A DNA stretch of 64,000 nt from a virus (lineage: Duplodnaviria; Caudoviricetes), in the IMG/VR virus record IMGVR_UViG_3300027374_000478, positions 95,092 through 159,091 of that record; one strand, given 5' to 3'. The number at the start of each line of letters is the position of its first letter. The first letter of the stretch is position 1. Below the pieces are notes generated by a model. It was not told where the DNA came from. It saw nothing but the letters and a program-made list of their open reading frames with translations, and ran no database searches. Below are positions 1,130 to 59,445 of the stretch, piece after piece. Both the position numbers and the translations under genes were made by a program.

Positions 1130-1393
1130 ATGAAATATATTAGTGATGATGGAAGGGTATTCGATACAGAACAGGAATATTGTAAACATGAACAACAGAT
1201 CAGAAAAGCAAAAGAGGATGAGAGAATTAAGAAAGAGAAGTTAGAATCTGAACGCAAAACTTTGATGGATCAGATTTGTCAGAAGTGTAAGGAGTTAAGT
1301 GAACTTACACAAACTTATTATGACAAATTTGGTATAACAATGGGAGAATATCTTCCATTTGGAGAGTTTTTAAAAATTTTGTATGAGTCTTAA
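1130..1393 (+). CDS. hypothetical phage protein
   Basis: ORF with AGGAGG RBS; its stop codon starts a cassette-boundary site. Confidence 0.75.
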   Translation: MKYISDDGRVFDTEQEYCKHEQQIRKAKEDERIKKEKLESERKTLMDQICQKCKELSELTQTYYDKFGITMGEYLPFGEFLKILYES

Positions 1394-1432
1394 AAGTCGT
1401 ATTTTAATTATAATTAAATAGGAGTAGAAGAG

Positions 1433-1632
1433 ATGGATAAAAAGTGTTTTGTATATAGGTGTAAATGTTGTGGCGCTACATTTTTTATAAATGCAAAAGA
1501 TATAACTGTAGCAGAATCTACAACATTAAAAAAAATAAAAAATTAGATAAACTTCAAATTCATAAATGTGATGAAAATACATCTCTTGTTGGAATTGGAG
1601 AATTAATTGGAGCAACAGATATTATAAGATGA
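1433..1632 (+). pseudogene. Small Zn-ribbon protein frameshifted in a poly-A run
   Basis: MDKKCFVYRCKCCGATF.. stops near 1546; another frame continues KLDKLQIHKCDENTSLVGIGELIG to TGA 1630-1632. Confidence 0.6.
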
Positions 1633-1662
1633 AAATTTGATTTTGTGGTGTGAGGTGATAGG

Positions 1663-1995
1663 ATGACGGAGAATGAAGCAAAGAAACTAATTGCAAAGTT
1701 TTGTGAAGATAGAATGAATTTTGCTAGGGGAAAGGATATGAGCGATAAAGAATTGGAGGATTTCTGCAAATTTTCGGATGCACTAACTCTTTCCATATCT
1801 TCTCTTGAAGAAATCCAGCAATACCGAGCAATCGGCACAGTCGAGGAATGCTGGGAGACAAGGGAAAGGCAGAGGGGGAAGAAAAGGGTTTTAGATTCAT
1901 ATTGCGGTTTTAATAGTTATGAATGCCCCGTTTGCGGCACAGAGCCGGTCGGTGGGAGTAATTATTGCCACAAATGCGGTCAGAGATTGGAGTGA
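1663..1995 (+). CDS. Zn-ribbon phage protein
   Basis: C-terminal CPVC..CHKCGQRL; GAGGTG RBS. Confidence 0.75.
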   Translation: MTENEAKKLIAKFCEDRMNFARGKDMSDKELEDFCKFSDALTLSISSLEEIQQYRAIGTVEECWETRERQRGKKRVLDSYCGFNSYECPVCGTEPVGGSNYCHKCGQRLE

Positions 1996-2001
1996 TACCC
2001 A

Positions 2002-2205
2002 ATGACCTACCAAATAGCAGACCAAAGACACCCATTCAGGGGGCTTGACAATAAAATCTGCAAAAATCCTACATATTGGTGCAGACTACATCAGGTTTGG
2101 ATGTCTGATGATGATGTAAAGAAGAAACAATGTAAATGTAAACAGACTTTTGACATGGTTGGTACATATTGTTGCGGAAATTTAGTCAAGAAGTCAATAA
2201 AATGA
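2002..2205 (+). CDS. small Cys-rich hypothetical protein
   Basis: 67-aa ORF ending inside a boundary site. Confidence 0.55.
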   Translation: MTYQIADQRHPFRGLDNKICKNPTYWCRLHQVWMSDDDVKKKQCKCKQTFDMVGTYCCGNLVKKSIK

Positions 2206-2266
2206 AACTTTCAAGTGCAAAAAGAGAAGTATATATTAAACACACAAATAGAAAAGGAGAGATATT

Positions 2267-3037
2267 ATGTGTAATTTTAAAAGTGGAATTATTTTGAAGA
2301 ACAGGGTTGTTTTAGCACCAGAAGGAAATGAAAGTCATTTGGATTTGTTAGAGAGTCTTGGGATTGAGGATACTCACATGAATGCATCTAAAACATTTGT
2401 AAGAGCAGAGTTAATTCCTAAAAATAATGATAAAATGACCAATGTAAAAGACTGGAGATATAAGGTCGATCAGGATATTGTACCTGATTGGTACGAAAGA
2501 GACCCAGAGAGATATGAGCAGGATTTTAGAAATGCAGTTGAAGAATATATGAATGAGTGGAGAAAACAGTTCAAATTCATTTGCGGGCATTATTGGACAA
2601 GTGTACAGGATGGAGATTGTACATATTACTTCATGAATGGAATTCTTAAAAAGTCAGAGTTTGGTAAAACAAATAATTATGTAGAATCTTATGTACGAAA
2701 TGATCTTATTAATAGTGAATTGTCTGAGGATTTAAAGAAAGAATTTGGAGATAAACTTGTTCCGATTTCTCTTGATTTGACTTCTATGGATGGATTTAAA
2801 GATTATGGAAGTGTTGAAGGTGATATTTTAGCAATCCCAAATATTCAGTTGCTTATGAAGTTTGGTGAAAGTATTCCATTGATTGATAATTGGTATTGGC
2901 TTGCTAATCCTAATCAGACACCGAAGAGAAACGATGCCCGCTATGTTCGGTACGTTATCTCCGATGGCGATGTGCGCTGCGGCGATTGCGGCTGGAATGA
3001 CTGGGGCGTGCGTCCGTTTTTCATCCTTCAATCTTAA
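2267..3037 (+). CDS. DGR target protein with C-terminal C-type-lectin-like (DUF6273-like) variable domain
   Basis: WYWL..P..YVRYV..GVRPFFIL C-terminus; 3' end carries the VR that matches the TR. Confidence 0.9.
   Translation: MCNFKSGIILKNRVVLAPEGNESHLDLLESLGIEDTHMNASKTFVRAELIPKNNDKMTNVKDWRYKVDQDIVPDWYERDPERYEQDFRNAVEEYMNEWRKQFKFICGHYWTSVQDGDCTYYFMNGILKKSEFGKTNNYVESYVRNDLINSELSEDLKKEFGDKLVPISLDLTSMDGFKDYGSVEGDILAIPNIQLLMKFGESIPLIDNWYWLANPNQTPKRNDARYVRYVISDGDVRCGDCGWNDWGVRPFFILQS
2936..3018 (+). repeat. DGR variable repeat (VR) with GC-rich IMH end
   Basis: 83-bp ungapped match to 3529-3611; 16 mismatches, all opposite TR adenines. Confidence 0.97.
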
Positions 3038-3058
3038 ATCTTTGAATCTTGCAAAAAA

Positions 3059-3111
3059 TCATCGGGTAGCCAGTAATCAGGAATGCGTCAGCATCCCGTA
3101 GGCAGCCGATG
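3059..3111 (+). other. GC-rich stem-loop downstream of VR (candidate DGR target-recognition hairpin)
   Basis: tcatcgg..ccgatga outer stem with inner ggaatgc/gcatccc hairpin; position matches known DGR hairpins. Confidence 0.6.
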
Positions 3112-3138
3112 AGCGACTGAAAGGAGCGGGGAAAACCA

Positions 3139-3507
3139 GTGAGCGAAGCGAAACTGGATGTTATTGTAAAAGCAATAAATCTTATGGAATATACTATGAC
3201 AATTACATCAAACCGAAAGAGGTATTCAGTTAAGCATTTAACATTGGTAAAACGCATCCAAAATCGCTGTATGGATATATATGAATATTTGCTTGATGCA
3301 AATAGGCTGAAATTGGATACTTCAAAATCGGAACGCCAAGAATTACAAACAAAAGCAATTTCATGTTGTGATAAGTTGTCTTGTTATGTGGAACTTTCTA
3401 TGAAATTGAAATTAATTGGAAGTGATACAGTAGGATATTGGCAGAAACAAATAAATGATGTGAAATATATGAGTATTGCATGGCGTTCAAAAGATAAAGA
3501 GAGATAA
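3139..3507 (+). CDS. avd: DGR accessory variability determinant (four-helix bundle)
   Basis: 122-aa helical protein between VR and TR; C-terminal YWQKQI..VKYMSIAW pattern. Confidence 0.85.
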   Translation: MSEAKLDVIVKAINLMEYTMTITSNRKRYSVKHLTLVKRIQNRCMDIYEYLLDANRLKLDTSKSERQELQTKAISCCDKLSCYVELSMKLKLIGSDTVGYWQKQINDVKYMSIAWRSKDKER

Positions 3508-3528
3508 TTTTAGGTTGTTTGTTGTATG

Positions 3529-3611
3529 ACCCACTATGTTCAGTACGTTAACTCCAATGGCAATGTGAACTACAACGATTGCAACTGGAATGACAAAGGC
3601 GTGCGTCCGTT
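3529..3611 (+). ncRNA. DGR template repeat (TR)
   Basis: AAC/AAT-rich copy of the VR lying between avd and RT. Confidence 0.95.
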
Positions 3612-3730
3612 CTGGATCGGAAGACGAATGAAAGTAAGAGAAACACTGAAATTAGAGTCCCGATATCAAAAGAATAAATAACCTTTCCTGATTCAAAAAT
3701 GTCAGGATAAATACAAAGGAACAAAATACT

Positions 3731-4774
3731 ATGATAGAAGATAAAACAGATTTTGAAAAAGTAGTAGATTTCGGTAATTTATATCAAGCATATTTAAAAT
3801 CTAAATCAGGTAAAGGTTTTTCAAAAAGCAGTCAAAAATTCCAAGTATTAGCTCTTGATGGAATTCATCAAATAAAGAGAAGATTAGAAACTAAAACATA
3901 TCAAGTATCAAAATACAATGAATTTATAATATATGAACCGAAAGAGAGAGTCATTAAAGCATGTTCGTTTGTAGATAAAATTGTACAGCATAGTTTGTGT
4001 GATAATGTACTGATTCCAAGATTGAATAAAGAGTTTATTCAAACAAATTATGCTGGACAGATTGGCAAAGGTACATTGTATGGATTGGATTGCTTAAAAG
4101 CTCAGATGTATCTTGCATATCAGAAGTATGGATATGATTGTTGGATTATAAAAGCTGATGTTAGCAAGTTCTTTTACAATATCAATCACGATATTTTGAA
4201 GGATATTTTGAAATATTTTATAGAAAATAAAGAAGTGTATTGGCTGTGTGAGAAGTTTATTGATAGTACTGAGGGAGTAGGACTTCCATTAGGTAATCAG
4301 GTTAGTCAAGTATTTGCACTTTTATATTTATCAGTGTTAGATCACTTTATCACAGGAGAACTTGGAGTTAAATATTATGGTAGATATATGGATGATTTTT
4401 ATTTGATAGTACAAAATAAAGAATATGCGAAATGGTGTTTAGCAGCTATTTATGAGTTTGTGTATTCATTAGGTCTTGAATTAAACAGTAAGACTCAGGT
4501 CATTCCTTTTAAAAATGGAATCAAATTTTGTGGTTTTCATACATATGTGACTTCAGGTGGTAAAGTAATCCGAAAGCTGAAGAACGAAAATAAACGTGCC
4601 GCTAAAAAGAAATTTAAGAAAATGGTTGGATTAGTGAGGTGTGGAAAACTTAGCAAAGAGAAATTTTATGAGAGTTACAATGCTTGGAAAAATCATATAT
4701 CACATGGCAATTGTGTGAAATTTGGATATGAGATGGATAGATATATAGAAAAATTATTTATAGGAGAAAAATGA
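3731..4774 (+). CDS. DGR reverse transcriptase
   Basis: GLPLGNQVSQ (DGR-type SQ), YGRYMDD, KADVSKFF, FCG motifs; next to TR. Confidence 0.95.
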   Translation: MIEDKTDFEKVVDFGNLYQAYLKSKSGKGFSKSSQKFQVLALDGIHQIKRRLETKTYQVSKYNEFIIYEPKERVIKACSFVDKIVQHSLCDNVLIPRLNKEFIQTNYAGQIGKGTLYGLDCLKAQMYLAYQKYGYDCWIIKADVSKFFYNINHDILKDILKYFIENKEVYWLCEKFIDSTEGVGLPLGNQVSQVFALLYLSVLDHFITGELGVKYYGRYMDDFYLIVQNKEYAKWCLAAIYEFVYSLGLELNSKTQVIPFKNGIKFCGFHTYVTSGGKVIRKLKNENKRAAKKKFKKMVGLVRCGKLSKEKFYESYNAWKNHISHGNCVKFGYEMDRYIEKLFIGEK

Positions 4775-5004
4775 TGGAATATATTTTGTTTTCATTTATA
4801 TTAGCTGGAACACCTGCTTTATATACTGGATATTGTAATAAATTGAGAGACTTAATTCGATTAATTTTCATCATAACATTTATCGTAATCTATTATATTA
4901 ATAAATGGGAAACCGCAGATATTAATGTGGGATTATTCGTTTGTTGGTGTGCAGTATGGACGATATTTTGGGATAATTTATATAAGAAACTTAAAAGGAA
5001 ATGA
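4771..5004 (+). CDS. small membrane protein
   Basis: Hydrophobic segments; ATGA overlap with RT stop. Confidence 0.6.
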   Translation: MMEYILFSFILAGTPALYTGYCNKLRDLIRLIFIITFIVIYYINKWETADINVGLFVCWCAVWTIFWDNLYKKLKRK

Positions 5005-5038
5005 AACACGAGTTTCAAAGAAAGGAGAAATAGAACAT

Positions 5039-5476
5039 ATGGGAGAAACAAGATATCCGTTAGGAGATAAGAAAGTGGTTAGGTTTGGATATGATGACTA
5101 TAGATATGGTTGTTTATGCACATTTCCATTCAATTATCAGGATCATAAATTGAGTATGGGAGATGTGGAGTCTCTTGCTCTTTTAGGGGCTACTTTGTGT
5201 ATGTATAGAAATGGAGGATTACAAAAAGTAGAATATGCTGATAAAGATGAGTATGTTATTCCTGATTGTCTTCCGTTGTGGGTTAGAAATGAAATTAGAA
5301 AAGTATTGGGTGATTATCCAGAAAAGTTTGATAGTGAAGAATATGATGTTGACCATTTGCCAGCATCTATAAATGAAGAGGAGCGCAAAAAAATTCTTTT
5401 AAAGAGATTTAAGGATATAAAAAAGTGGGCGAAAAAATCTATTAAAGAAATAGAAAATGAAGAATATGAGTTGTAG
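5039..5476 (+). CDS. hypothetical protein (single-gene cassette)
   Basis: AAGGAG RBS after site 5002; next site at 5478. Confidence 0.7.
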   Translation: MGETRYPLGDKKVVRFGYDDYRYGCLCTFPFNYQDHKLSMGDVESLALLGATLCMYRNGGLQKVEYADKDEYVIPDCLPLWVRNEIRKVLGDYPEKFDSEEYDVDHLPASINEEERKKILLKRFKDIKKWAKKSIKEIENEEYEL

Positions 5477-5514
5477 ATAAAATTTCCGTTTCAATTGATG
5501 AGAAAGGCGAAAAG

Positions 5515-5805
5515 ATGAAAGTATTAAAAGAGAATAATTTTTCTGGGACATTTCCTATGAAAATAACATGTAAAAGAGTCGTAGATGAATATGGATTTGC
5601 ATATGGAAAGAAAGAAGATTTTTGTGGAAGTGAACTTGAAATTGATTCAGATGATATAAAGAAACATAGGTGGAGCAAGTATCCAGATTATAGTGGAACA
5701 GATTATGGAATTATTTGTCCTGTGTGTGGTCAGTTTATCTCTATTGATGAGAATAAAATACCCAAATATGTTATTGAAAATGTGGAAGAAATTTATATTG
5801 GATGA
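5515..5805 (+). CDS. Zn-binding hypothetical protein (single-gene cassette)
   Basis: CPVCG motif; flanked by sites 5478 and 5803. Confidence 0.7.
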   Translation: MKVLKENNFSGTFPMKITCKRVVDEYGFAYGKKEDFCGSELEIDSDDIKKHRWSKYPDYSGTDYGIICPVCGQFISIDENKIPKYVIENVEEIYIG

Positions 5806-5838
5806 AACGAAGGTTTCAAGTAAAAGTGAGGTGGTAAT

Positions 5839-6162
5839 TTGGAAAATATTTTAAGTAAAAATAATGACGGATCAATAGATGTCATGGACAGATATGGATT
5901 TACGGAATATACAGTTGCCAAGAATGAAAATGGTATAGTAGCTAGATTGGCAAATCAGTTATATGAATATGAGAATTTCTTTACAGAAAGGCTTAAAGAT
6001 GTATTGATGAATTACTTTGATGTTCCATCTGACACATATGCGTATAATCTAACAAGACATAAAACTGCTTTTTCTGAAGGAACCATATCTCTTGATGATT
6101 TTGAAGAATTTGATGAAGAAATCATTGATGATATTGTGAAGTATATCAAAGACAATATTTAG
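5839..6162 (+). CDS. hypothetical protein (single-gene cassette)
   Basis: GAGGTGG RBS, TTG start; flanked by sites 5803 and 6167. Confidence 0.7.
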   Translation: MENILSKNNDGSIDVMDRYGFTEYTVAKNENGIVARLANQLYEYENFFTERLKDVLMNYFDVPSDTYAYNLTRHKTAFSEGTISLDDFEEFDEEIIDDIVKYIKDNI

Positions 6163-6202
6163 CCAATAGAAGAAACATTTTAACTGGAGGTGATGATTTG
6201 GT

Positions 6203-6376
6203 ATGAAGATCGCTATAGAAATACCAAAAGAATATGAAATTGATTTTAAAGCAGATAAATTCAAAGATTTCTTTTCAAGAGTAATAGCAGATATGAATTG
6301 TTTGTGTGGTAATTATGAAACAGAAATAGCACATATGCTAATTAAAGCGTTTAATAATGGAGAAATAATAAAATAG
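6203..6376 (+). CDS. small hypothetical protein
   Basis: GGAGGTG RBS; MKIAIEIPKEYE.. 57 aa (below ORF-track cutoff). Confidence 0.65.
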   Translation: MKIAIEIPKEYEIDFKADKFKDFFSRVIADMNCLCGNYETEIAHMLIKAFNNGEIIK

Positions 6377-6549
6377 GCATCCTGATACTTTGGCGAGTGG
6401 GCAAGATGCCTATAAGCAACAAAACGGATAACCGCTTTGATAAGTCTTAGTATATCAATTCTATTAGATTTAATCAAGTCGGTAATTCCACAAATAAAAA
6501 ATAGAATATAGGTGGTGATGTAGTAACGATTATTAATCGAATCTGGCAA

Positions 6550-7029
6550 ATGCCAAACAGCAAAACTTTTTCAATCAAACCGATTGAAGAACTTATACAT
6601 AAATATGCGTATGGGCAGATTATAGATCTGTTTGCAAACAGTAATAAAATAGCAACAATTACAAACGATTTAGACACACAATATGATACTGATTATCATA
6701 TGGATACATTAGATTTTCTTAAAATGTTTGATGATTGTTCCGTTGATACTATATTGTATGATCCACAATACAGTGCTCGCCAAGTATCGGAATGTTATAG
6801 AAAATTGGAAAGAACTGTAAATATGCAAACAACTCAAGCTTCATATTGGTCAAAACAGAAAGAACAAATAGGAAGAATTGTAAAGAAAGATGGAATAGTT
6901 ATTACTTGTAGCTGGAACAGTGGTGGCATTGGAAAGAAATATGGATTTGATATTGAAGAGATATTATTAGTGCCACATGGAGGATGGCACAATGACACGA
7001 TTGTTGTTGTAGAGAGAAAAGTAAAATAA
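6550..7029 (+). CDS. small adenine-specific DNA methyltransferase-like protein (catalytic motif reads DPQY)
   Basis: DLFAN.., TNDLD, YDPQYS motifs; true start may be a few codons upstream. Confidence 0.7.
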   Translation: MPNSKTFSIKPIEELIHKYAYGQIIDLFANSNKIATITNDLDTQYDTDYHMDTLDFLKMFDDCSVDTILYDPQYSARQVSECYRKLERTVNMQTTQASYWSKQKEQIGRIVKKDGIVITCSWNSGGIGKKYGFDIEEILLVPHGGWHNDTIVVVERKVK

Positions 7030-7169
7030 AGTATTCCTAAAGAGTAAAACGATAGGATAGTGGTTGTGGTTCTCAGCCGTTGTATCAGAATTTTTTTGAT
7101 ACATAAATGGGTATTTTACCCGATGAATTAAATCTTTTATTGCCATAGATGGCAAAAATATAAATACAG

Positions 7170-7231
7170 AAAGGATACGAATGTTCACTGGTGAAGAAAG
7201 CTGCGCAGCTACTAAGTAATGGTGAACAAAA
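7170..7231 (+). promoter_or_regulatory. Palindrome-containing leader element A
   Basis: AAAGGA, then stem 7182-7189/7221-7228 enclosing AGCTGCGCAGCT; 12-codon uORF 7181-7219. Confidence 0.6.
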
Positions 7232-7876
7232 ATTAAGGTATTAGAATTATTCGCAGGTACAAGAAGTATTGGTAAAGCATTTGAAGCAAGAGGTCATAAA
7301 GTTTTCAGTGTTGAATGGAATAAAGATTTTGAAAACATCGACCTATATGAAGATATTAGTAAAGTTACAGCACAAGACATTTTAAACAAGTTTGGAAAAC
7401 CTGATGTTATTTGGGCGAGTCCTGACTGTACGACTTTCAGCATTGCGGCAATTAGTCATCACAGAAGAAAGAATCCAGAAACAGGAAGTCTTGAACCTAT
7501 CAGTGATTATGCAAAGTTCTGTGATAAAGTAGATCAACATGTTATTTCGCTTATCAAAGAATTAAATCCTACATACTACTTCATCGAAAATCCCCGTGGT
7601 GGCATGAGAAAGATGTCTTGGATGCAAGACTTACCACGATATACGGTTACATATTGTCAGTATGGCGATGAAAGAATGAAACCTACTGATATCTGGACTA
7701 ATCATCCAAATCCTAAGTTTAAACCCATGTGTAAGAATGGCGATCCATGTCATGTATCTGCTCCAAGGGGAGCTAAAACAGGAACACAGGGACTTAAAGG
7801 TAGTATTGAACGAAGTAAAATTCCATCAGCATTATGTGAGCATATTGTTGATATTTGTGAAAAAAACATTAGGTAA
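7232..7876 (+). CDS. C5 cytosine DNA methyltransferase-like protein (ATT start, or a 1-nt frameshift after ATG 7219)
   Basis: Frame of ORF 7604 extends to 7232: IKVLELFAGTRSIG (motif I), WASPDC (IV), IENP (VI). Confidence 0.8.
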   Translation: MKVLELFAGTRSIGKAFEARGHKVFSVEWNKDFENIDLYEDISKVTAQDILNKFGKPDVIWASPDCTTFSIAAISHHRRKNPETGSLEPISDYAKFCDKVDQHVISLIKELNPTYYFIENPRGGMRKMSWMQDLPRYTVTYCQYGDERMKPTDIWTNHPNPKFKPMCKNGDPCHVSAPRGAKTGTQGLKGSIERSKIPSALCEHIVDICEKNIR

Positions 7877-7930
7877 TATTTCAACGGGAGTCATGAACCC
7901 ATGAAAGATTCACAAAATAACAAATTAGAG

Positions 7931-7990
7931 AAAGGATATAACAAGTAATTCCGGATAAATTAGCGTTGCAACGCCTTGTAGATAAGGCAT
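7931..7990 (+). promoter_or_regulatory. Double-palindrome leader element B
   Basis: ACAAG/CTTGT stem enclosing TCCGGA and GCGTTGCAACGC; close sequence match to element D at 18530. Confidence 0.65.
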
Positions 7991-9379
7991 TTGGAAAGTA
8001 ATAATAAAAGATTTAGTTTATCAAAAAATTGGAAACTGGTAAATTTCTGTGAGTTTGATAAGTATGCGACTAAAAGCTATTGTGCAATTCACAGAGTAGA
8101 TGAGAATTTAAACCTTGGTGATATTACTGAGGTTGATGGAACAAAATTAGAAGATTTTAATATGATTTGTGGAGGGAGTCCTTGTCAGGATTTCAGCGTA
8201 GCTGGTAAACAAAAGGGTTCTGTGTGGACTTGTAATGGTTGTGGACATGAATATAACCCTCTAACGGTACATTGGAGTCAGAGAGATAAATGTCCTAATT
8301 GTGGAAGTAATAATATTGAAAAAACAAGATCGTCACTTCTTGTTGAGTATTTGAGAGTAATCCGAGGAAATAAACCTAATTTTGGAATGTATGAAAATGT
8401 TAAAAATATTGTGGGTAAACAATTCAGAGATACTACATTCAAATTATTTGAAGATGAGTTACATGAGTATGGCTACAATACATATTGGAAAGTGCTGAAC
8501 GCAAAAGATTATGGTATTCCTCAAAACAGAGAGCGAGTATATCTGATCTTTATCAAGAAAGACTTAGACAACGGTAAGTTTGTGTTCCCTAGAGAATTTG
8601 ATAATGGAATTCGTTTGAAAGATGTTTTGGAAGATGAGGTAGATGAAAAATATTATATTTTTGATGATAAAGTGCAGAGATTTTTAACAAATCTAAATAC
8701 TAATACTTCTTTACTATATGATCCGTGTCAGGTAAAAAGAGAGGGTAAATCAAGGGAATATAATGATTACTGTCCAACTCTCACTTCAAGAGACTATAAA
8801 GATCCCAGATTGGTAAATGAAAATGTAGTAAAACAAGTCGGAAATATTTCTGATTGCAATGGGAATTGGAAGAATCCACAAGTGGGGAGAATTTATGATC
8901 CCGATGGTTGTTCACCGACATTAAATACTTGTGGCGGAGGTAGCCATGAACCTAAGATTGTTCAGGTTGGTAATGTAAATCCATCTGGTAAAGGTATGAA
9001 TGGTAATGTATTTTCAGAAGATGGACTAGCACCAACTTTAACAACAAATAAAGGTGAAGGAAATAAAATTTTAACAGGTATTAGAATCCGCAAACTAACG
9101 CCAAAAGAAACTTTCAGGCTTATGGGATTTTCTGATTCGGCATATGACGCTGCAAGCAAAGTTGTTAGCAACAGCCAGCTTTATAAACAATCAGGGAATT
9201 CAATAGTAGTAGATGTTTTATATTACATATTAGTTGAGTTATATAAGGCAATGCCGTACCTATTTGATGATTTAAAACTGAGCAGTTTCTTCTCAGGTAT
9301 TGGTGCATTTGAGGCTAGTTTGGACAGATTGTATGAAAGCATTAATACTGGAAATTTTACCAAACCACAAGCGGAGTAA
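7991..9379 (+). CDS. Circularly permuted C5 cytosine DNA methyltransferase with Zn-ribbon insertion
   Basis: GGSPCQDFS (IV), ENV (VI), PQNRERVY (VIII), RKLTPKE (IX), YKQSGNS (X), then motif I FFSGIGAFE at the C-terminus. Confidence 0.9.
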   Translation: MESNNKRFSLSKNWKLVNFCEFDKYATKSYCAIHRVDENLNLGDITEVDGTKLEDFNMICGGSPCQDFSVAGKQKGSVWTCNGCGHEYNPLTVHWSQRDKCPNCGSNNIEKTRSSLLVEYLRVIRGNKPNFGMYENVKNIVGKQFRDTTFKLFEDELHEYGYNTYWKVLNAKDYGIPQNRERVYLIFIKKDLDNGKFVFPREFDNGIRLKDVLEDEVDEKYYIFDDKVQRFLTNLNTNTSLLYDPCQVKREGKSREYNDYCPTLTSRDYKDPRLVNENVVKQVGNISDCNGNWKNPQVGRIYDPDGCSPTLNTCGGGSHEPKIVQVGNVNPSGKGMNGNVFSEDGLAPTLTTNKGEGNKILTGIRIRKLTPKETFRLMGFSDSAYDAASKVVSNSQLYKQSGNSIVVDVLYYILVELYKAMPYLFDDLKLSSFFSGIGAFEASLDRLYESINTGNFTKPQAE

Positions 9380-9392
9380 ATTCTGCTTGTGG
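9352..9392 (+). promoter_or_regulatory. Candidate programmed -1 ribosomal frameshift signal
   Basis: In-frame A_AAT_TTT heptamer 9352-9358, 6-nt spacer, 12-bp hairpin 9365-9392; -1 frame open to 9951. Confidence 0.75.
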
Positions 9393-9951
9393 CGAAGAAG
9401 TAATATGTATTGATGATACACAAGGTTTTGATGGTGCTAGATTTTACAAAGATTATGTTCCAACATTGCGAAGTCAAAGAAGCGGATTAAAAGTTGCTTG
9501 TATTAAAGATAAAGAATATTTAGATATTTGTATCAACGATAGAGGAAAGGTAAATAAAAAACCACAGATAACATATGGGCATTCGCCAACACTTATTTCT
9601 GAATTTCATGGGAATTTACCAAAAGTTGTTGAGGTAAGAGGTGCCGCTATGCGTGGTAGGTACAATTCAGATGGAAAAACAGAACAGAAAATAGAAGTAA
9701 GAGATGATGAGTTGTCTAATGCAATTACAACTGTACAGAAAGACTCGTTAATTGTAGAAAATAAGTCTTGGTTCGAAAAGAAATATACAGAGTTTTATGA
9801 GAAATATGGTTATATTCCAGAATATTTTGTTCCATATAACGGAACTGAATGTAAAGATTATGCATCGACTTTAACTGCAAATTCTAATACAAGTCCAACA
9901 CATTCTGGGACGATTTTAATTATGGAGATTGGCAAAGAAAAGAAGTCTTAA
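9358..9951 (+). CDS. -1 frame extension of the C5 MTase (target-recognition-like repeats)
   Basis: Repeated PTL/STL/AITT segments like the MTase variable region; no own RBS. Confidence 0.7.
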   Translation, partial: YQTTSGVNSACGEEVICIDDTQGFDGARFYKDYVPTLRSQRSGLKVACIKDKEYLDICINDRGKVNKKPQITYGHSPTLISEFHGNLPKVVEVRGAAMRGRYNSDGKTEQKIEVRDDELSNAITTVQKDSLIVENKSWFEKKYTEFYEKYGYIPEYFVPYNGTECKDYASTLTANSNTSPTHSGTILIMEIGKEKKS

Positions 9952-9971
9952 AACCCACGTTTCAAAGGAAG

Positions 9972-13135: not shown

Positions 13136-13183
13136 ATACCATATATAGTGTTCGGTTGGATGAATGGTTGCTATATATGGTAT
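13136..13183. promoter_or_regulatory. tandem NrdR-box-like pair 1
   Basis: ATACCATATATAGTGT (13136) and TTGCTATATATGGTAT (13168), 32 bp apart. Confidence 0.6.
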
Positions 13184-13225
13184 AGAAATGAAATCGAGAT
13201 TTTAAGGCAGAAAAAGAGGTGATAG

Positions 13226-14347: not shown

Positions 14348-14778
14348 TTACAAAAGGAAATGAGATTAGGCTGATTAAGCCGATGGGAGTATTTGATAAT
14401 ATCGGAGAAGTTTGCGAAGTGACAGATGTATCAGAAGATGGCGTTATCAGTTTTAAATTTGGTGGCTGTCATCTTGGGTGTATGTCTTATAACGAATTTG
14501 AAAAGTATTTTGAATTAGTAGAGAAGGAAGTATCAGAAGAAGAAAGTGATGAAGATGCTGATTCTATGGCAGAAAATAAAGAAGTGTATGACTTAATTGA
14601 GTGGTGTAAAGAGAATGATAAACCATTTTATCTAAAGCTATATTTAAATGTACTGGAAAAGAGAAATGGTATTACACAGTCAATTCTTGGAATGTATAAA
14701 AATAGGTTATGTTTGGTGCAGTTTAAGAATAAAACTTTCAAGGATTCAGATTTTAGTGGATTAAAAATTATGCTTTAA
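14344..14778 (+). CDS. hypothetical, possibly truncated/chimeric protein
   Basis: ORF runs through weak sites 14725/14740 into the end of the retron RT. Confidence 0.55.
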   Translation: MITKGNEIRLIKPMGVFDNIGEVCEVTDVSEDGVISFKFGGCHLGCMSYNEFEKYFELVEKEVSEEESDEDADSMAENKEVYDLIEWCKENDKPFYLKLYLNVLEKRNGITQSILGMYKNRLCLVQFKNKTFKDSDFSGLKIML

Positions 14779-15739: not shown

Positions 15740-15771
15740 AAATAACCTCAATATTCAAATAAATGCTGGTG

Positions 15772-15951
15772 TTAGTTAGAAACAATGCTGATTAACGAGC
15801 GAATAATATCAGCTAATGTTTCAGAACTACAGTTAGACATAATCAGTGCAAGTAGAACAATTAATGATACAGAAATAATCACCATTTTTTTAGTAATACG
15901 AACCTTTTTGTGGATGTCAATAGTGATTTCAAATTTATCCGCCTTTTTCAT
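15772..15951 (-). CDS. 59-aa single-pass membrane peptide, putative retron effector
   Basis: AAGGAGGTG RBS; basic N-terminus, VIISVSLIVLLALIM hydrophobic span; between ncRNA and RT. Confidence 0.7.
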   Translation of the reverse strand: MKKADKFEITIDIHKKVRITKKMVIISVSLIVLLALIMSNCSSETLADIIRSLISIVSN

Positions 15952-16047
15952 TGGCTTCACCTCCTTGTTATTATATTGGCTCCATAATGGAGTCTCCCCA
16001 GTCCTCAAATAACAAAGAGATATGATTATAGCGTATATCTACCTTAC

Positions 16048-16270
16048 ACCAGCAAAATTCTTCTCCCCGTAAAAGCACTTTATTATACTTCTCTTGAAAG
16101 AAGTATGTAAAGAGCATGTGATGACCTGTGCTGTCGGGGAGGATGGCACAGGATGATACCGGTGGTACAGAGCCTGTCCATCCTAAAAAATGCTCATAAA
16201 TCATTGAGCATCCATTCGTTATATAAAATAACGAACCAAACGGGAGTAAATCTGCTATATAACACTGATA
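16048..16270 (-). ncRNA. putative retron msr-msd RNA
   Basis: Terminal inverted repeats (~16240-16257 / ~16050-16070) enclose at least four hairpins; directly downstream of a sigma-A promoter. Confidence 0.7.
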
Positions 16271-16276
16271 CCTATA

Positions 16277-16305
16277 ACTATATACCAATTTGTACCAAAT
16301 GTCAA
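16277..16305 (-). promoter_or_regulatory. sigma-A promoter of retron operon
   Basis: TTGACA-17bp-TATAGT on the minus strand. Confidence 0.8.
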
Positions 16306-16403
16306 TGAAAAAACAAACATAAGTTCTACAAAATTTTTATAAAGAGGTGACAAATTATGTGATAAAAAAGGATAAAAACAATTATAGATAAGAAATATAA
16401 TAT

Positions 16404-18394: not shown

Positions 18395-18529
18395 AAATAT
18401 TCCTTGAAAAGCCAATTTCATCGGTAAAATTATCATCTGTATAGAATGTAAAAGATAGTAACCAAAAGAAATTATATTTTTATTGGCAGTTGCAAATGTT
18501 AATAAAAATCAGCAATTCAGCAAACTATG

Positions 18530-20663: not shown

Positions 20664-20864
20664 ATACATATAGACTTAAAACATCGGTTTCATTGGGAGT
20701 TATCAGTTCATAACTGGTAGTTCTCATTCGGGAGATAGTTGCCTTACCAATTCTAACGACTCCCAACAAACGGTAGGAATGGCGTTTACGACAGGCGGTA
20801 GTGTAGCTCCTTCCTTGTACGAGAACAAGGGCAAACTACATTAAAGAATATTTGGAGGTATAAA

Positions 20865-21083
20865 ATGGATAAGAGGGAAATAGATGGTGTAGAAATTAAT
20901 GGTAAAAGTATTATTACTTCATTAAAAATTATTAAGCAGGTTTGCAAGGACAACCTTAATGAGAAAGGAAATTGTGGTAATTGTCCATTTTTTGTAGACC
21001 AAAGTGATTGCTGTGGAATCGAAAATATGACACCTGATAATTGGAAGATTTTAGAATATACAAAGTTTCAAGCATTAGGATAA
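20865..21083 (+). CDS. small Cys-rich hypothetical protein
   Basis: GGAGG RBS; CGNCPF motif; stop starts site 21081. Confidence 0.7.
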   Translation: MDKREIDGVEINGKSIITSLKIIKQVCKDNLNEKGNCGNCPFFVDQSDCCGIENMTPDNWKILEYTKFQALG

Positions 21084-21115
21084 ATTTTTCATTTCAAAGG
21101 AAGGAGAAACAAGTA

Positions 21116-21358
21116 ATGAAGGTTAATCTACACAGAGTTAATTATGATGGTTCAGAGAATAGTAATGGAAATTGGTGGGTATGGAAAGAGATATGTGATA
21201 AATGTGGAAAAACAGTTTCAGACGAAGATATATTACACTCGTTTCCTGGAGATGAATCAGAATTAGATTTTTGTGTAGATTGTTATCATTATTTATTGGA
21301 TAATGGTATTTCATACGAACAGGCTATTGGTTTGTATGGTAAAAACTCAAACGGTTAA
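21116..21358 (+). CDS. small Zn-finger protein (single-gene cassette)
   Basis: CDKCG..CVDC; flanked by sites 21081 and 21356. Confidence 0.7.
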   Translation: MKVNLHRVNYDGSENSNGNWWVWKEICDKCGKTVSDEDILHSFPGDESELDFCVDCYHYLLDNGISYEQAIGLYGKNSNG

Positions 21359-21403
21359 AACAACTCTTTCATTGGGAAAAATTTAAAGAAATGAGGTCAT
21401 AAA

Positions 21404-23416: not shown

Positions 23417-23457
23417 TCTTGAAATTTTGCTTTTATTGGATGAGGAAGGAGGAAATA

Positions 23458-25394: not shown

Positions 25395-25525
25395 TATTCC
25401 ACACGGAATATAAAATGTATTCCGAAATTCCAATTTGGATATCGGATAGGCGGTTTTCTAGCCCGTTACATACGCATATGCCTATGTAGAATGTCTTTTA
25501 AAAGGCAATAGAACCAGAGTTTCAA

Positions 25526-27071: not shown

Positions 27072-27102
27072 GGCAATAAAAGGTTAATTTTAAGGAGAAA
27101 TT

Positions 27103-27525: not shown

Positions 27526-27729
27526 GATATTTTGATATGGATAGAAATGACTTATTAGTAGAATCTTCTAATGGCAAAGACCCAGAACCATGTAGTGATT
27601 ATGATAAAGAAACTGGTTATTGTAAAAGTTTTGGTAAACCGTGTGATGCATGTTATGAAAATAGTTTAAAGAAATGGTTTTATTACTATTGAAATCTTGG
27701 TTTCAAGTGGCGGGAGGTGATGCAATAAC

Positions 27730-28825: not shown

Positions 28826-29005
28826 ATGGATAAGAATCAGATATATGAAACAGCATTTGAAACAATTAAAGAATCTACAGAATGGGGATTAGAAGATGAA
28901 AGTAAAACATATGGACACTAGATCGATGGTGTAGTGGCGATGACAGATAATCTTATTGATAAACTTAAAGAAGAAAAGAATGGTAGACCTGTAGAGAAGT
29001 ATTAA
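28826..29005 (+). pseudogene. small ORF with internal TAG
   Basis: AAGGAG RBS; TAG at 28919; frame continues to TAA that starts site 29003. Confidence 0.55.
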
Positions 29006-29022
29006 AAGCACGATTTCAAGGT

Positions 29023-29411: not shown

Positions 29412-29765
29412 ATGTTAAAAACAAGTGAAGTAATCAATCATATAGAAAAAATGTATGATATTAAATTGATGGATTATCAGAAAGAATTTGTTAAGCATGT
29501 TATCCAGGGAGATGTGATTTATACTCCAAGATGTTTTGGAAGAAGCATGATTTATAATGGTTATGCTGATTATTTGAAAAATGTTATCGGCAAAGAAACC
29601 GACTATTCTATAGATCCAAATGATTTTGATAAGGTTTATACATATAGGGATGTACCAAATGGTACTTTATATCCAAGCGAGCATATTGAAAGTGCTATGA
29701 ATAAAAATAAGAAACTGTTTGAAAAAGAATATGAATGTAACTATGGATTAAATGTGAGGTCTTAA
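29412..29765 (+). CDS. hypothetical protein
   Basis: IKLMDYQKEF..PRCFGRS; stop starts site 29763. Confidence 0.65.
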   Translation: MLKTSEVINHIEKMYDIKLMDYQKEFVKHVIQGDVIYTPRCFGRSMIYNGYADYLKNVIGKETDYSIDPNDFDKVYTYRDVPNGTLYPSEHIESAMNKNKKLFEKEYECNYGLNVRS

Positions 29766-29798
29766 AACCGAAATTTCAATGTAAGAAAGGATTATAAA

Positions 29799-30209: not shown

Positions 30210-30258
30210 ATGAATGCGTTCTTTCATGGCAAAAATATAAAGAAAAGGAGAAAATAGA

Positions 30259-31489: not shown

Positions 31490-31537
31490 ACACAATATAT
31501 AGCGTATAGCGGATAAAGCAAACACTATATATTGGCA
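31490..31537. promoter_or_regulatory. tandem NrdR-box-like pair 2
   Basis: ACACAATATATAGCGT (31490) and ACACTATATATTGGCA (31522), 32 bp apart. Confidence 0.7.
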
Positions 31538-31645
31538 TGATAAGCTGTTGAAATTCTTATTTTATTGAGCTAGTTAAATTATTGTATGAAATAATCTTCT
31601 GTGGTATGATTTTTGTAATATATACTATGGAAGGAGAAAAATTTT

Positions 31646-47816: not shown

Positions 47817-47864
47817 TGTCTATATATAGCGGTTTGCAAAACTCAAAACCACTATATATAGACT
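47817..47864. promoter_or_regulatory. tandem NrdR-box-like pair 3
   Basis: TGTCTATATATAGCGG (47817) and CCACTATATATAGACT (47849), 32 bp apart. Confidence 0.6.
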
Positions 47865-47907
47865 GAAATGGCAATGAAATAGGACTTTTATGGTATATAT
47901 TTAAAAA

Positions 47908-48897: not shown

Positions 48898-49024
48898 TAG
48901 TATTACCCCTTAGATATGATAGGAAAATTATACCACAAATGCAGAATGTAGTAAATATAAAAACATTTGATTGGAACAACGCCAAATTAAATGAAAGATA
49001 GGTTTCAACAGTAAAAACAAAACG

Positions 49025-50425: not shown

Positions 50426-50830
50426 ATGTTATGGTCATGGAATGAAACAGAAAATGAAACTTGGACGCATGGTACATTTGAAACAAAAGAAGAAGCAATA
50501 CAGGATGCTTTAGGTTGCAAAGAATGGATTGAGAGAAGTTTATCTACAGATAATCCAACAATTTATCTTGGTGAATGTGAACTTGTTCCTTTGAGAACTG
50601 ATCCTGATCCAGATAGGATTATGGAGGAGTTGAACGAGGCATATAGGGACGATTCTGGATGTGATACATATATTTATGATGGTGTAACAGATGAAGACAG
50701 AAAATGGTTAGAGGATAAGCTATCTGAATTGATGTTTGAATTTAATCAGAAGATTGGTTTGAATCCTGGATGGTTTAAAATTGTTGCTATGGAAGAAATT
50801 AATTTGAAAGATTATAAGGAAAAGCAATAG
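50426..50830 (+). CDS. hypothetical phage protein
   Basis: GTFETKEEAI motif; stop starts site 50828. Confidence 0.7.
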   Translation: MLWSWNETENETWTHGTFETKEEAIQDALGCKEWIERSLSTDNPTIYLGECELVPLRTDPDPDRIMEELNEAYRDDSGCDTYIYDGVTDEDRKWLEDKLSELMFEFNQKIGLNPGWFKIVAMEEINLKDYKEKQ

Positions 50831-50867
50831 AACCACGCTTTCAATGGAATATATGAGGTGAAAATAT

Positions 50868-51182: not shown

Positions 51183-51223
51183 TTGAATCAAGTCTTTTAA
51201 AGATAAGGAATGATAAATTTAAA

Positions 51224-52819: not shown

Positions 52820-52987
52820 GTGAGAGATATTAAAAACAAAACAATTAAAATTTTAGACGAGTTAAAGGAAAAGAATCCTGGGCAAAAAATTATTGTAGAA
52901 ACTCCTAATGGAACAGTATCATTGAAGATTTCTGATGCACTAATTTATGAGGGGATAAATGGAGAAATAGTAATAGACAGTGAATAA
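52820..52987 (+). CDS. small hypothetical protein
   Basis: GAGGGAG RBS, GTG start; stop starts site 52985. Confidence 0.55.
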   Translation: MRDIKNKTIKILDELKEKNPGQKIIVETPNGTVSLKISDALIYEGINGEIVIDSE

Positions 52988-53017
52988 ATTGTGTGTTTCA
53001 AAGGAAGGAGAATGTGA

Positions 53018-55018: not shown

Positions 55019-55083
55019 ATATAGAAGAAATAAATGTAACTCGTAAACACATCAAATAAAATTCAAATTTCAACGGAGGACAA

Positions 55084-56852: not shown

Positions 56853-56948
56853 ATGATTATTGTTTTACTAGGGGCTTCCGGATCAGGGAAGTCAACAATT
56901 GAAAATGAACTGGCGAAACATCATGGCTTTGAAAAGATTATTTTATAG
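56853..56948 (+). pseudogene. Guanylate-kinase-like N-terminal fragment truncated at a boundary site
   Basis: MIIVLLGASGSGKSTIENELAKHHGFEKIIL*; site TGAAA-AGATTA-TTTTA at 56930 spans the break. Confidence 0.75.
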
Positions 56949-57496: not shown

Positions 57497-57944
57497 TATA
57501 TATCTTGCTGGTGCAATGGGCTGCTATTTTAACACAGAACAACACGGTTATCCTAAAAAATGGAGAGACCATGTAAAAAGATATGTAAAGAGATTCTATA
57601 GTGATATCACAATCGTATCTCCTACAGATTATTATGAAATAGGTAAAAATTATCATAAAACTGAATCAGAGGTTATGCGATTTGATCTTAGGATGGTTAG
57701 AGAGGCAGATATTGTATTATGCAATCTAAGAGATCTACATGCTTCTATCGGAACTTCAGATGAAATTTTGTATGCGTTTATTAGCGGAAAACCTGTAATA
57801 GGATTCTTAGAAGATGAGTCAGCAGTAAAAAATATTCATCCATGGAAAGTTGAGCAAATCGATAGAATTGAAACTGGAGAAAAAGCACTGGAAAATGCAT
57901 TAAGTTACATTTATAGATACTATATAGATAGATACAATTATTAA
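57486..57944 (+). CDS. nucleoside 2-deoxyribosyltransferase-like protein
   Basis: IYLAG, DL..V..ADIV, SIGTSDE...A...GKPVI. Confidence 0.8.
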   Translation: MKRSIYLAGAMGCYFNTEQHGYPKKWRDHVKRYVKRFYSDITIVSPTDYYEIGKNYHKTESEVMRFDLRMVREADIVLCNLRDLHASIGTSDEILYAFISGKPVIGFLEDESAVKNIHPWKVEQIDRIETGEKALENALSYIYRYYIDRYNY

Positions 57945-57960
57945 GAAAGGCAAGTTATTA

Positions 57961-58791
57961 ATGAATTTTCAAAAAGAGAATATTATATCATGCAAAGAAT
58001 ATTGCTCAATAAAAAAGAAAGAATTAAAGTCAAAATTAGATAATGTAAAACAGATTCCAACATTAGCAGTAGTACAAATTGATGATAATAAGTCTTCAAA
58101 TGCTTACATAAATGGTAAAAAGAAAGATTGTGAAGAGGTTGGTATTAAGTTTGTTCATTTTAAATTAGAGTCTTCAAAATACACACAGGAAGACTTGTGT
58201 AATATTTTAATATCACTGAGTAATGATGAGTTAATGAATGGGATTATTGTTCAACTACCAATACCAGAAAAGTACAATGTTGAAGAGTTGTTAGCTAATA
58301 TAACTCCTGATAAAGATGTTGATGGATTTAGAAAAGACAGTTGTTTTGAATCTTGTACACCAAAAGGAATTATAGAGTGGCTGGAATATAATAAATATGA
58401 TTTTACTGGAAAACAAGTAACAGTATTAGGACGCAGTAAGATAGTGGGAAAGCCACTTGTAAATATGTTGATCGATAGAGGGAGTACGGTTATAAGCTGC
58501 AATAGTCACACGAAAAATATAGAAAAATATACACAGGATTCCGATTTGGTTATTTCAGCTGTGGGAAAAGCAAATCTATTCTGTTGTGAAATGCCAGAGA
58601 ATGGAATAGTAGTAGATGTTGGAATTAATCATGATATTGACGGAAAATTATGTGGTGATATTAATCGTAATTATGTAAATAATAATATAAAAAATACATA
58701 TGTGACACCTGTTCCCGGAGGGGTTGGTTTATTAACAAGAGTTGCATTATTAGATAATATTACAAAATCATGTGAAATGAGAAAGGATTAA
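57961..58791 (+). CDS. folD: methylenetetrahydrofolate dehydrogenase/cyclohydrolase
   Basis: GIIVQLP, KDVDG, CTP.G, GRSKIVGKP, DVGIN, TPVPGGVG. Confidence 0.93.
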   Translation: MNFQKENIISCKEYCSIKKKELKSKLDNVKQIPTLAVVQIDDNKSSNAYINGKKKDCEEVGIKFVHFKLESSKYTQEDLCNILISLSNDELMNGIIVQLPIPEKYNVEELLANITPDKDVDGFRKDSCFESCTPKGIIEWLEYNKYDFTGKQVTVLGRSKIVGKPLVNMLIDRGSTVISCNSHTKNIEKYTQDSDLVISAVGKANLFCCEMPENGIVVDVGINHDIDGKLCGDINRNYVNNNIKNTYVTPVPGGVGLLTRVALLDNITKSCEMRKD

Positions 58792-58792
58792 A

Positions 58793-59041
58793 ATGGGAAA
58801 TACAATTAAAGTAAAACTGGATAGTATAGAAAATGCACAGAAATTTGTAGAAATATGCAACCAATTTGAAAATATAGATATTGATTATATTGTTGGAAAA
58901 TATACTGTTGATGCTAAATCTATTATGGGCGTTTTATCCACATCATTAGGACGTGTAGCAAGTGTGAATTTTAATAAAGGAAATCAAAAATCAATTGATT
59001 TGTTTTGTGGTTTAATTAGCAATTGGATTATGGGGGAATAG
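58793..59041 (+). CDS. HPr-like protein 2
   Basis: VDAKSIMGVLS; no His15. Confidence 0.8.
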   Translation: MGNTIKVKLDSIENAQKFVEICNQFENIDIDYIVGKYTVDAKSIMGVLSTSLGRVASVNFNKGNQKSIDLFCGLISNWIMGE

Positions 59042-59045
59042 GAGT

Positions 59046-59288
59046 ATGAGAATAAAATTAAATACAGTAAGTGATGTAAATAGTTTTGTTAATGCCAGTA
59101 CAAAGTACTATGAAGGTGACATTGACGTAGAGCAAGGAAGGCAAATTATAGACGGTAAAAGTATTCTAGGGATATTTAGTTTGAATTTAATGAAACCACT
59201 AGAAGTCAATATAAACACTGATAATGTAAATACGGAACGTGATTTTTATAATTTTATCAAGAAATGGGAAGTGAATGATGTGGATTGA
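59046..59288 (+). CDS. HPr-like protein 3
   Basis: IDGKSILGIFSL; no His15. Confidence 0.8.
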   Translation: MRIKLNTVSDVNSFVNASTKYYEGDIDVEQGRQIIDGKSILGIFSLNLMKPLEVNINTDNVNTERDFYNFIKKWEVNDVD

Positions 59289-59445
59289 TATTGAACACCT
59301 GTTTTGCTGGCAAAGGAGAGATGATAAATGAAAATCAGTTTATTTGATGGATTTTTGAATTTGATCTTGATTGAAAGACAGTTGTAGGTATTGGAATTAT
59401 AAATTTTAGGACGTGCTTTATTTAATATGTGAGGAGGGATTATTT

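Follow-up and report, generated by a model that had tools for sequence, protein, structure and literature searches.

The pdif/dif modules of Acinetobacter plasmids, on which the host XerC/XerD proteins act, are small modules flanked by short inverted-arm sites with differing 6-bp centres, and they are found in different contexts; the pdif site itself is 28 bp long (11-6-11) with well-conserved XerC and XerD arms in alternating orientation, and the modules move between plasmids and between positions. Integrons (IntI, attI, attC) consist of promoterless units separated by recombination sites, and their tyrosine recombinase acts on attC sites that are long imperfect palindromes recombined as folded single strands, the cassettes being excised as circles and reinserted at attI. 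The heterospecific lox and FRT sites of engineered cassette exchange, a laboratory design, combine identical 13-bp arms with differing 8-bp spacers and give in-register replacement by recombination between matching spacers. In T4-type phages, the repeated intergenic motifs known as PeSLs mark hyperplastic accessory regions in which small genes are gained, lost, or replaced; PeSLs carry sigma-70-like promoters and terminator stem-loops and recombine with each other by homology, any two copies being able to do so, with deletions, mini-circles, and shuffling as the outcome (PMC2839356, PMC4122927). Finally, the genome of phage SPbeta carries a repeated intergenic operator, SPBRE, that is read by the tyrosine-recombinase-fold repressor MrpR/YopR/SroF; it is roughly ACAAATACAAAAAATATGTATA, 15 to 24-26 bp in length, non-palindromic, present at about ten promoters, and bound for repression by a catalytically dead monomer (PMC10516654; 10.1101/2025.11.27.690993). 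Here we describe a 16-bp near-palindrome, TRAAW-N6-TTTYA, that recurs between the genes of a 64,000-nt stretch of viral DNA (hereafter the window, bases 95092-159091 of the 159-kb IMG/VR record IMGVR_UViG_3300027374_000478), and we argue that its copies are very probably address-coded exchange junctions, each marked by a position-specific 6-nt centre.

The genome holding the window is termed G0, and coordinates of the whole record are written G000. Three whole relatives were fetched, G1 and G2 (DnaE 99% identical) and G3 (92%), and two further genomes, G4 and G5, were compared, of which G5 is only 83% complete. An iterated position-weight matrix drifted into AT-rich noise and was abandoned, and for this reason we used fixed patterns and looked for support in the relatives. 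Five copies of the strict palindrome TGAAA-N6-TTTCA are present in the window against 0.42 expected (0 of 100 shuffles reach five), TRRAA-N6-TTTCA occurs 26 times against 3.5 expected, and the widened pattern T[AG][AG]A[AT]-N6-TTT[CT]A has 30 matches on the + strand against 9.2 +/- 2.9 in Markov-1 sequences. Twenty-eight of these 30 matches are intergenic, where intergenic DNA makes up 15% of the sequence (binomial p ~3e-21), so that the sites are strongly enriched between genes, and 26 of the 30 have the same 6-nt centre at the site in at least one relative. The matches at 21205 and 55430, both of them in-gene TGG matches, look like chance. The window therefore holds about 28 real sites rather than the approximately 35 counted in an initial annotation made from the sequence, the listed examples of which are all correctly located. 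That annotation also described the sites as co-oriented, a weak description given that the core is nearly palindromic and that the same asymmetric pattern matches 26 times on the - strand.

When all 5-N(4-8)-5 palindromes were ranked in an unbiased scan, TGAAA at spacing 6 came first in G0, G1, G2, and G3, and TAAAA at spacing 6 ranked first in G4; no palindrome of any arm or spacing is enriched in G5. In the whole genome the sites span approximately 72 to 152 kb, and they lie 8-33 nt ahead of the next start codon, before its ribosome-binding site. As had been claimed, the replication core is free of them, with no supported site between 31549 and 47875. The observation that the left arm often serves as the upstream stop codon, put at about a dozen cases, also stands (11 of 28 sites), but the frequency is only that given by reading frame, about one third; the stop codon was accordingly rejected as a component of the signal, and the lack of TGG does not depart from expectation. 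Two further approaches were set aside. An exact-pattern scan of IMG/VR for one site was not used because its 14 specified bases are too unspecific (115 mostly random loci), and a group with 82% DnaE identity proved uninformative near the polymerase, where only in-gene chance matches in conserved core genes were seen.

The centres are unique within each genome and are conserved by position between genomes. An identical 6-nt centre is present in the relative for 26 G0 sites in the comparison with G1 and for 37 in that with G2, and the order of these sites is strictly the same (26/26 and 37/37 colinear), whereas by our own arithmetic fewer than one shared-centre pair is expected by chance. The spacer that was initially called freely variable thus differs between the sites of one genome but is conserved at each position across phages. 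Moreover, the base composition of the centres is even (A77 C70 G75 T84) on a strand with 11% C. A second clade, the group with 74% identity in the reverse transcriptase of the diversity-generating retroelement (DGR), has its own colinear series of centres, in the order GATTGA, TAGGCG, TCTAAG, TTTAAC, TTTACT, DGR, TCTCGA, TATCCA, GTCCGT, GCAGAA, CCGTGA, and ATTAAG, with varying distances between them.

Outside the replication core the relatives form a patchwork, in which stretches of 77-99% identity alternate with stretches without similarity, and from one shared site to the next the DNA is either 85-99% identical or without a blastn match and different in length. Comparing G0 with G2, the DGR unit (2198..5002) is 97% identical from end to end (2788 vs 2790 nt), units 5002..5478 and 5478..5803 show no similarity (460 vs 309 nt and 309 vs 1260 nt), and unit 5803..6167 is again 99% identical (348 vs 348 nt). 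The DGR unit is conserved throughout while both neighbouring units lack homology. Across three genomes, neither flank is homologous within 450 nt at 58 of 98 shared-site pairs (blastn, tblastx), and homology within that distance is one-sided at another 26 of the 98. Between unrelated flanks, an island of identity covers approximately positions 0-19 (position 1 being the first base of the left arm), beyond which identity falls to background level; homology between relatives therefore stops at the sites, as had been anticipated. In addition, in contigs from other mouse-gut runs homology begins or ends at 13212-14, 23423, and 29005, positions that coincide with three of the sites or lie no more than about 10 nt from them.

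Comparison of arms with flanks places the exchange within the site itself. Where the arms vary, at positions 2, 3, 5, and 15, the variant goes with the flank beside it. Distinct haplotypes were pooled from all relatives; pairs in which only the left flank is unrelated differ in the left arm in 19 of 26 cases and in the right arm in 2 of 26 (Fisher p = 2e-6), and pairs in which only the right flank is unrelated differ in the left arm in 2 of 17 cases and in the right arm in 11 of 17 (Fisher p = 4e-3). Since arm variants follow their own flank, crossovers map between positions 5 and 15, that is, to positions 6-14 or about 9 nt, and strand exchange, as read from these sequences, falls inside the central region of the site, between the arms, where the initial annotation had suggested looking for breakpoints. 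In the second clade, a single right flank is preceded by any of six unrelated left flanks, which bring their own left arms, and the change falls exactly at the TTTAAC site; at the TCTAAG site a single left flank is followed by any of three unrelated right flanks. A four-gamete test on coarse flank clusters gave no site with all four combinations, and three at best.

These observations are best explained by a scheme in which crossovers occur at fixed points, the sites, and the early and accessory half of the genome is thereby split into about 50 slots, with the arms W-T-R-A-A-W ... T-T-T-Y-A-W common to all sites and the 6-nt centre unique to each position. Related genomes present in one cell, either as co-infecting phages or as a phage and a prophage, would exchange DNA at sites with the same centre; one parent would give the left arm and everything leftward, and the other the right arm and everything rightward. 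Neighbouring genes would in this way be swapped with gene order kept, because sites with unlike centres would rarely recombine. The likeliest machinery would be a site-specific tyrosine recombinase cutting on either edge of the centre and dependent on a match between centres, as for heterospecific lox and FRT sites, the candidates being an early-block Xer-like enzyme (G000 84250-85245), a late-block YomM-like enzyme (G000 46508-47539), and the host Xer proteins. In our judgment, it is as likely as not that a tyrosine recombinase carries out the exchange and requires matching centres; identity of the centres could reflect either a mechanistic need or mere shared descent, and we hold the explanation as a whole, enzyme included, to be similarly balanced.

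The initial annotation placed the sites in an integron/pdif-like array, in which a recombinase would excise units as circles and reinsert them elsewhere, shuffling order and content within and between genomes. Its reading of the sites as recombination junctions is upheld by our data, but the excision and shuffling are not, and we regard such an array as quite improbable. It is true that the units are bounded by recombinase-type sites, start with a ribosome-binding site, and have no evident promoter. One junction between unlike sites was also found: in G1 the TTTCCG site runs directly into the right flank that G0 has behind its CCCACG site, the centre staying with the left partner, and the event equals a precise loss or gain of window 5494-9964. 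The block absent from G1 comprises five units from TTTCCG to CCCACG (5478..9949), including a zinc-ribbon C5 methylase, and the junction lies exactly at the site. Moreover, one gene of G0 reappears in G1 in another slot (89% identity over 404 nt). This unlike-site junction, however, is the only one among approximately 340 site haplotypes, and 24 homologous units occupy the same slot, so that exchange is almost exclusively between sites of the same centre; the conserved order of 26/26 and 37/37 sites, and of all steps between SPbeta and phi3T (below), also argues against shuffling. There are no attC-like folded sites, and the recombinases of G0 score 17-40 bits with integron-integrase models that have cut-offs of 265-435 bits. 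The contigs of four runs contain no joint between two sites, a weak negative as contigs drop rare forms; nor can contigs reveal RNA ends, and we draw on them neither for excision nor for RNA processing. We conclude that excision-type events exist but are rare, and that like-site exchange between different genomes is dominant.

Inverted arms around a 6-bp spacer had been taken as a hallmark of recombinase sites. This geometry is not diagnostic, however, as CRP-type and 434-type regulators share the same 5-6-5 arrangement, and it may equally be cited for the view that the sites are purely regulatory, acting as operators or stoperators or as an RNA hairpin or processing signal, with selection retaining those recombinants that happen to join at gene borders. 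Their placement after a stop codon and ahead of the following ribosome-binding site, 8-33 nt upstream of the start codon, suits such a role and is comparable to that of the L5 stoperators. In addition, a recombinase-fold repressor with numerous sites in the genome is known from SPbeta-like phages (PMC10516654). The anatomy of the sites argues otherwise. In the logo of 126 relative-supported sites, W-TRAAW-N6-TTTYA-W, the spacing is always 6, and the base at position 2 (R) is independent of that at position 15 (Y) (A,C 45; G,C 43; G,T 23; A,T 15), so that pairing is not selected; this speaks against an RNA or DNA hairpin and bears out the initial argument to that effect, there being no G-C/A-T covariation at the two positions. 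The degeneracy is instead mirror-symmetric, position 6 being rarely A and position 11 rarely T, with W at both positions 0 and 17 and weaker outer preferences for C at -1 to -3 mirrored by G at 18 to 20, and this symmetry points to a dimer reading double-stranded DNA. An RNA structure was rejected because no Rfam family reaches threshold in the window and covariation is absent. Furthermore, SPBRE, the operator known from SPbeta, is longer and differs in sequence: the motif shared by ten MrpR-bound SPbeta promoter regions differs from the palindrome, although it adjoins a TAAAA-N6-TTTTA site at aimR, and SPBRE was therefore rejected as the identity of the sites. Above all, a purely regulatory role gives no reason for the centre at each position to persist while both flanking genes are replaced, and we consider this reading highly improbable, marginally more so than the shuffling array.

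The sites extend beyond the gut phages. G0 is a distant SPbeta-like temperate phage of mouse-gut Lachnospiraceae: its genes for a helicase, a primase-like protein, RecJ, and DnaE correspond, in unchanged order, to SPbeta yorI, yorJ, yorK, and yorL, close relatives are held by Lachnospiraceae genomes and metagenome-assembled genomes, including Roseburia sp. 1XD42-69 and Acetatifactor muris, and mouse-gut runs from 14 studies contain the same DNA; a megablast search with the replication core gave no match among GenBank phages. SPbeta itself has 34 TAAAA-N6-TTTTA sites, the next commonest arm numbering six. SPbeta and phi3T share 40 centres, with 39 of 39 steps colinear, and among their shared sites five have both flanks unrelated and seven have one; at two of these seven, the arm is different on the unrelated side. 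We consider it somewhat short of an even prospect that SPbeta-like phages, from Bacillus to gut Lachnospiraceae, carry natural genome-wide heterospecific sites at which a phage tyrosine recombinase (YopP-like, YomM-like, or early-block Xer-like) crosses like addresses only.

The principal competing explanation is recombination by short homology at an element that is kept for some other purpose, as a binding or expression signal, with single-strand annealing, template switching, or microhomology joining and no dedicated recombinase, following the logic of the PeSLs. If the site is the sole sequence shared by otherwise diverged genomes, islands and in-register exchange are what would be expected, and each copy is indeed identical over 16-20 bp to its counterpart in related phages. 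The SPbeta annotation includes a Sak4-like annealing protein, yorG, and PeSLs demonstrate that repeated regulatory motifs can drive modular shuffling (PMC2839356, PMC4122927). Nevertheless, a window of about 9 nt (positions 6-14) is very short for homology and yet is reused at dozens of sites and alleles, and nearby ribosome-binding sequences, which are equally shared, are not break points. That the centres are even in composition and never repeat within a genome looks like the product of selection rather than an accident. Promoter and terminator features are absent from the site, and no annealing-protein gene was found in the window. On balance we think short-homology recombination unlikely, yet a good deal more plausible than either the shuffling array or purely regulatory sites.

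Two tyrosine recombinase genes are present in the G0 genome, both of them outside the window, and no serine recombinase was found there. The early-block Xer-like gene (G000 84250-85245, + strand) lies in a unit bounded by sites at 83534 and 85503 of the record, and the late-block YomM-like gene (G000 46508-47539, - strand) is a homologue of SPbeta yomM with 32% identity. Both encode Xer-like proteins of approximately 330-345 residues that are far under the Xer cut-offs but keep the catalytic R, H-x-x-R, H, and Y residues; the orphan recombinase sought in the initial annotation thus has two intact candidates. Syntenic homologues of the early-block enzyme occur in G1 (86%), G2 (35%), and several second-clade genomes (29-42%), and G3 and G4 have other early-block tyrosine recombinases, so that each of the site-bearing genomes G0 to G4 has an early-block enzyme. 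Co-occurrence mildly favours this enzyme, in a tiny sample that includes the 83% complete G5. An HNH endonuclease gene at record 82973-83536, upstream of the window, ends at the junction site 83534 directly before the unit with the early-block recombinase, and two GmrSD-like genes lie just upstream of it (78737-82856).

Several observations weigh against the proposal of like-address exchange by a dedicated enzyme. No test ties either recombinase to the sites. The presence of the enzymes does not consistently track that of the sites, which also counts for the short-homology reading: the early-block enzyme is very divergent among genomes that share the same arms, with no detectable orthologue in G3, G4, or SPbeta, and G5, which has neither sites nor an early-block recombinase, nonetheless carries a YomM-like gene, which weakens the case for the YomM-like enzyme by co-occurrence. 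The strongly conserved part of the arm is only 5-6 bp, with weaker mirror-symmetric preferences out to positions -3 and 20, whereas the arms of Xer, Cre, and FLP sites are 11-13 bp, enough to bind one monomer each. The pairs behind the Fisher values of the flank-arm comparison are not phylogenetically independent. Many block ends between relatives lie away from any site, and ends of homology blocks fall at sites far above a uniform null (8 vs 0.7 and 6 vs 1.0) but not clearly above a gene-junction null (8 vs 3.9 and 6 vs 5.3), so that we do not rely on this test. Finally, in a laboratory evolution study, hybrids of SPbeta and phi3Ts were joined within ordinary homologous regions 15 times out of 16, a result that also counts for short-homology recombination, and the sole junction termed nonhomologous is said to follow yosA (10.1101/2020.05.06.055103). 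A TAAAA-TATTCC-TTTTA site lies between yorZ and yosA at approximately 116415 of SPbeta NC_001884, with flanks that are unrelated between SPbeta and phi3T. The nonhomologous junction may lie on this palindrome.

The individual sites of the window are all given on the + strand. The first, TAAAA-GTCGTA-TTTTA (1391..1406), is intergenic and has the upstream stop codon as its left arm; its centre was not found in the relatives, and neither was that of TAAAA-TTCAAA-TTTCA (55057..55072), which is intergenic and 12 nt before the next start codon. The DGR unit extends from TAAAA-TGAAAC-TTTCA (2198..2213), with a centre shared with four relatives, to TGAAA-CACGAG-TTTCA (5002..5017), where the left flank is 99% identical to that of G2, the right flank is unrelated, and the right arm in G2 is TTTTA. 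At TAAAA-TTTCCG-TTTCA (5478..5493), the site joined in G1 to the right flank of the 9949 site, the centre is present in G1 and G2 with both flanks unrelated. Compared with G2, TGAAA-CGAAGG-TTTCA (5803..5818) has a 99% identical right flank and an unrelated left flank, the G2 left arm being TAAAA, and TAGAA-GAAACA-TTTTA (6167..6182) has a 99% identical left flank and an unrelated right flank. The centre of TGAAT-TAAATC-TTTTA (7124..7139) is found in three relatives with unrelated flanks, and that of TAAAA-CCCACG-TTTCA (9949..9964), the left end of the first radical SAM unit, in two, its right flank standing behind the TTTCCG site in G1.

Centres shared with both G1 and G2 between unrelated flanks are those of TGAAA-TCGAGA-TTTTA (13189..13204), near which contigs of other runs lose homology at 13212-13214, TGAAA-AGCCAA-TTTCA (18405..18420), TGAAA-TTTTGC-TTTTA (23420..23435), TAGAA-CCAGAG-TTTCA (25509..25524), TGAAA-TCTTGG-TTTCA (27690..27705), TAAAA-GCACGA-TTTCA (29003..29018), and TAAAA-CCGAAA-TTTCA (29763..29778). 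A contig of run X16 gains homology at 23423, where TAG replaces TGA before the homology starts, and a contig of that run also gains homology at 29005. TAAAA-CATCGG-TTTCA (20677..20692) has a left flank 88% identical to that of G1 and an unrelated right flank, and the reverse holds for G2. Centres found in G2 are those of TAAAT-TTTTCA-TTTCA (21081..21096) and TAAAT-TGTGTG-TTTCA (52985..53000) and, with unrelated flanks, TAAAA-CAACTC-TTTCA (21356..21371), the left end of the second radical SAM unit, and TAAAA-GGTTAA-TTTTA (27077..27092). TGAAT-GCGTTC-TTTCA (30211..30226) has its centre in three relatives with unrelated flanks. The last site before the replication core, TGAAA-TTCTTA-TTTTA (31549..31564), shares its centre with five relatives, and the first after it, TGAAA-TAGGAC-TTTTA (47875..47890), with nine, including G3; at the latter the left flank is 89-100% identical in the relatives, the right flank is unrelated, and the right arm is different. 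Seven relatives share the centres of TGAAA-GATAGG-TTTCA (48992..49007) and TAGAA-CCACGC-TTTCA (50828..50843), both with unrelated flanks in G1 and G2, and of TGAAT-CAAGTC-TTTTA (51184..51199). TGAAA-AGATTA-TTTTA (56930..56945) has its centre in G1, with a left flank that is 93% identical.

A paired 10-bp palindrome, C(T/A)ATATAT(A/T)G, with members about 22 nt apart, is present at window 13141-13185, 31493-31534, and 47820-47861, just upstream of the sites at 13189, 31549, and 47875, in each case after a long gene block; in the second clade the same box (CACAATATATAG) comes after the TCTCGA site. The box may form a hairpin resembling a terminator, or it may be a second element to which a protein binds. 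After the site at 20677 and before the next gene, window 20693-20860 holds about 170 nt of comparatively G+C-rich non-coding DNA that is 90% conserved in G2 over 146 nt and has no Rfam match, and it may be a small RNA or a leader.

Genes of the record are on the minus strand to about 64.5 kb and on the plus strand thereafter. The window encodes the DGR reverse transcriptase and a second reverse transcriptase, several DNA methylases, several radical SAM enzymes, and one STAND NTPase, together with a replication block of DnaB-like helicase, primase, RecJ, and DnaE, a RecD-like helicase, an NAD ligase, and NrdD. A minus-strand reverse transcriptase gene (14768-15751, RVT_1) is carried on a 1622-bp stretch (window 14780-16401) that is not bounded by junction sites. 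As this stretch is absent from a contig of run X10, which has 9 other letters in its place, it looks like a separate insertion, for example a reverse-transcriptase-bearing mobile or defence element.

The precise swapping of genes at their borders has been debated since the modular theory of phage evolution, with conserved linkers on one side and random breaks followed by selection on the other. The linkers of the present lineage have a definite structure, carry a position code, and show crossovers within about 9 nt. Should an enzyme read the sites, they would be a natural counterpart of recombinase-mediated cassette exchange and a new, homology-free route for viral reassortment of defence, counter-defence, and methylase genes; if that enzyme crosses like addresses, the accessory genome would reassort one slot at a time, much as segmented viruses do, including where the flanks have no homology. 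Since the same sites are present in SPbeta and phi3T, the idea is directly testable in Bacillus subtilis. In practice, the sites provide annotation boundaries for accessory units, and they suggest orthogonal docking sites for phage engineering. We did not find a description of them in the literature, our coverage of which is incomplete and is not proof of novelty.

Each of the systems described at the outset resembles these sites in part. Compared with pdif, the phage sites have short, nearly symmetric arms with weakly conserved outer positions, and they show no alternation of orientation, a centre tied to position, and a fixed order. Promoterless units and, if our proposal is correct, a tyrosine recombinase are shared with integrons, but the phage sites are of a 16-22 bp double-stranded type, their order is conserved, and the recombinases are not integron integrases. 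PeSLs are likewise repeated and intergenic, but the phage sites are without -35/-10 elements or a T run and so have no promoter or terminator anatomy, their stems do not covary, and only sites of like centre exchange, with order conserved. SPBRE belongs to the same phage lineage and is read by a protein of the same fold as the putative enzyme. A position code with conserved order is present in none of SPBRE, PeSLs, integrons, or pdif modules. The nearest parallel in logic is provided by the heterospecific lox and FRT sites, the spacer-matching rule of which may extend to the phage sites; to our knowledge, no natural genome-wide series of such sites has been described, and the junctions of this SPbeta-like lineage would be one.

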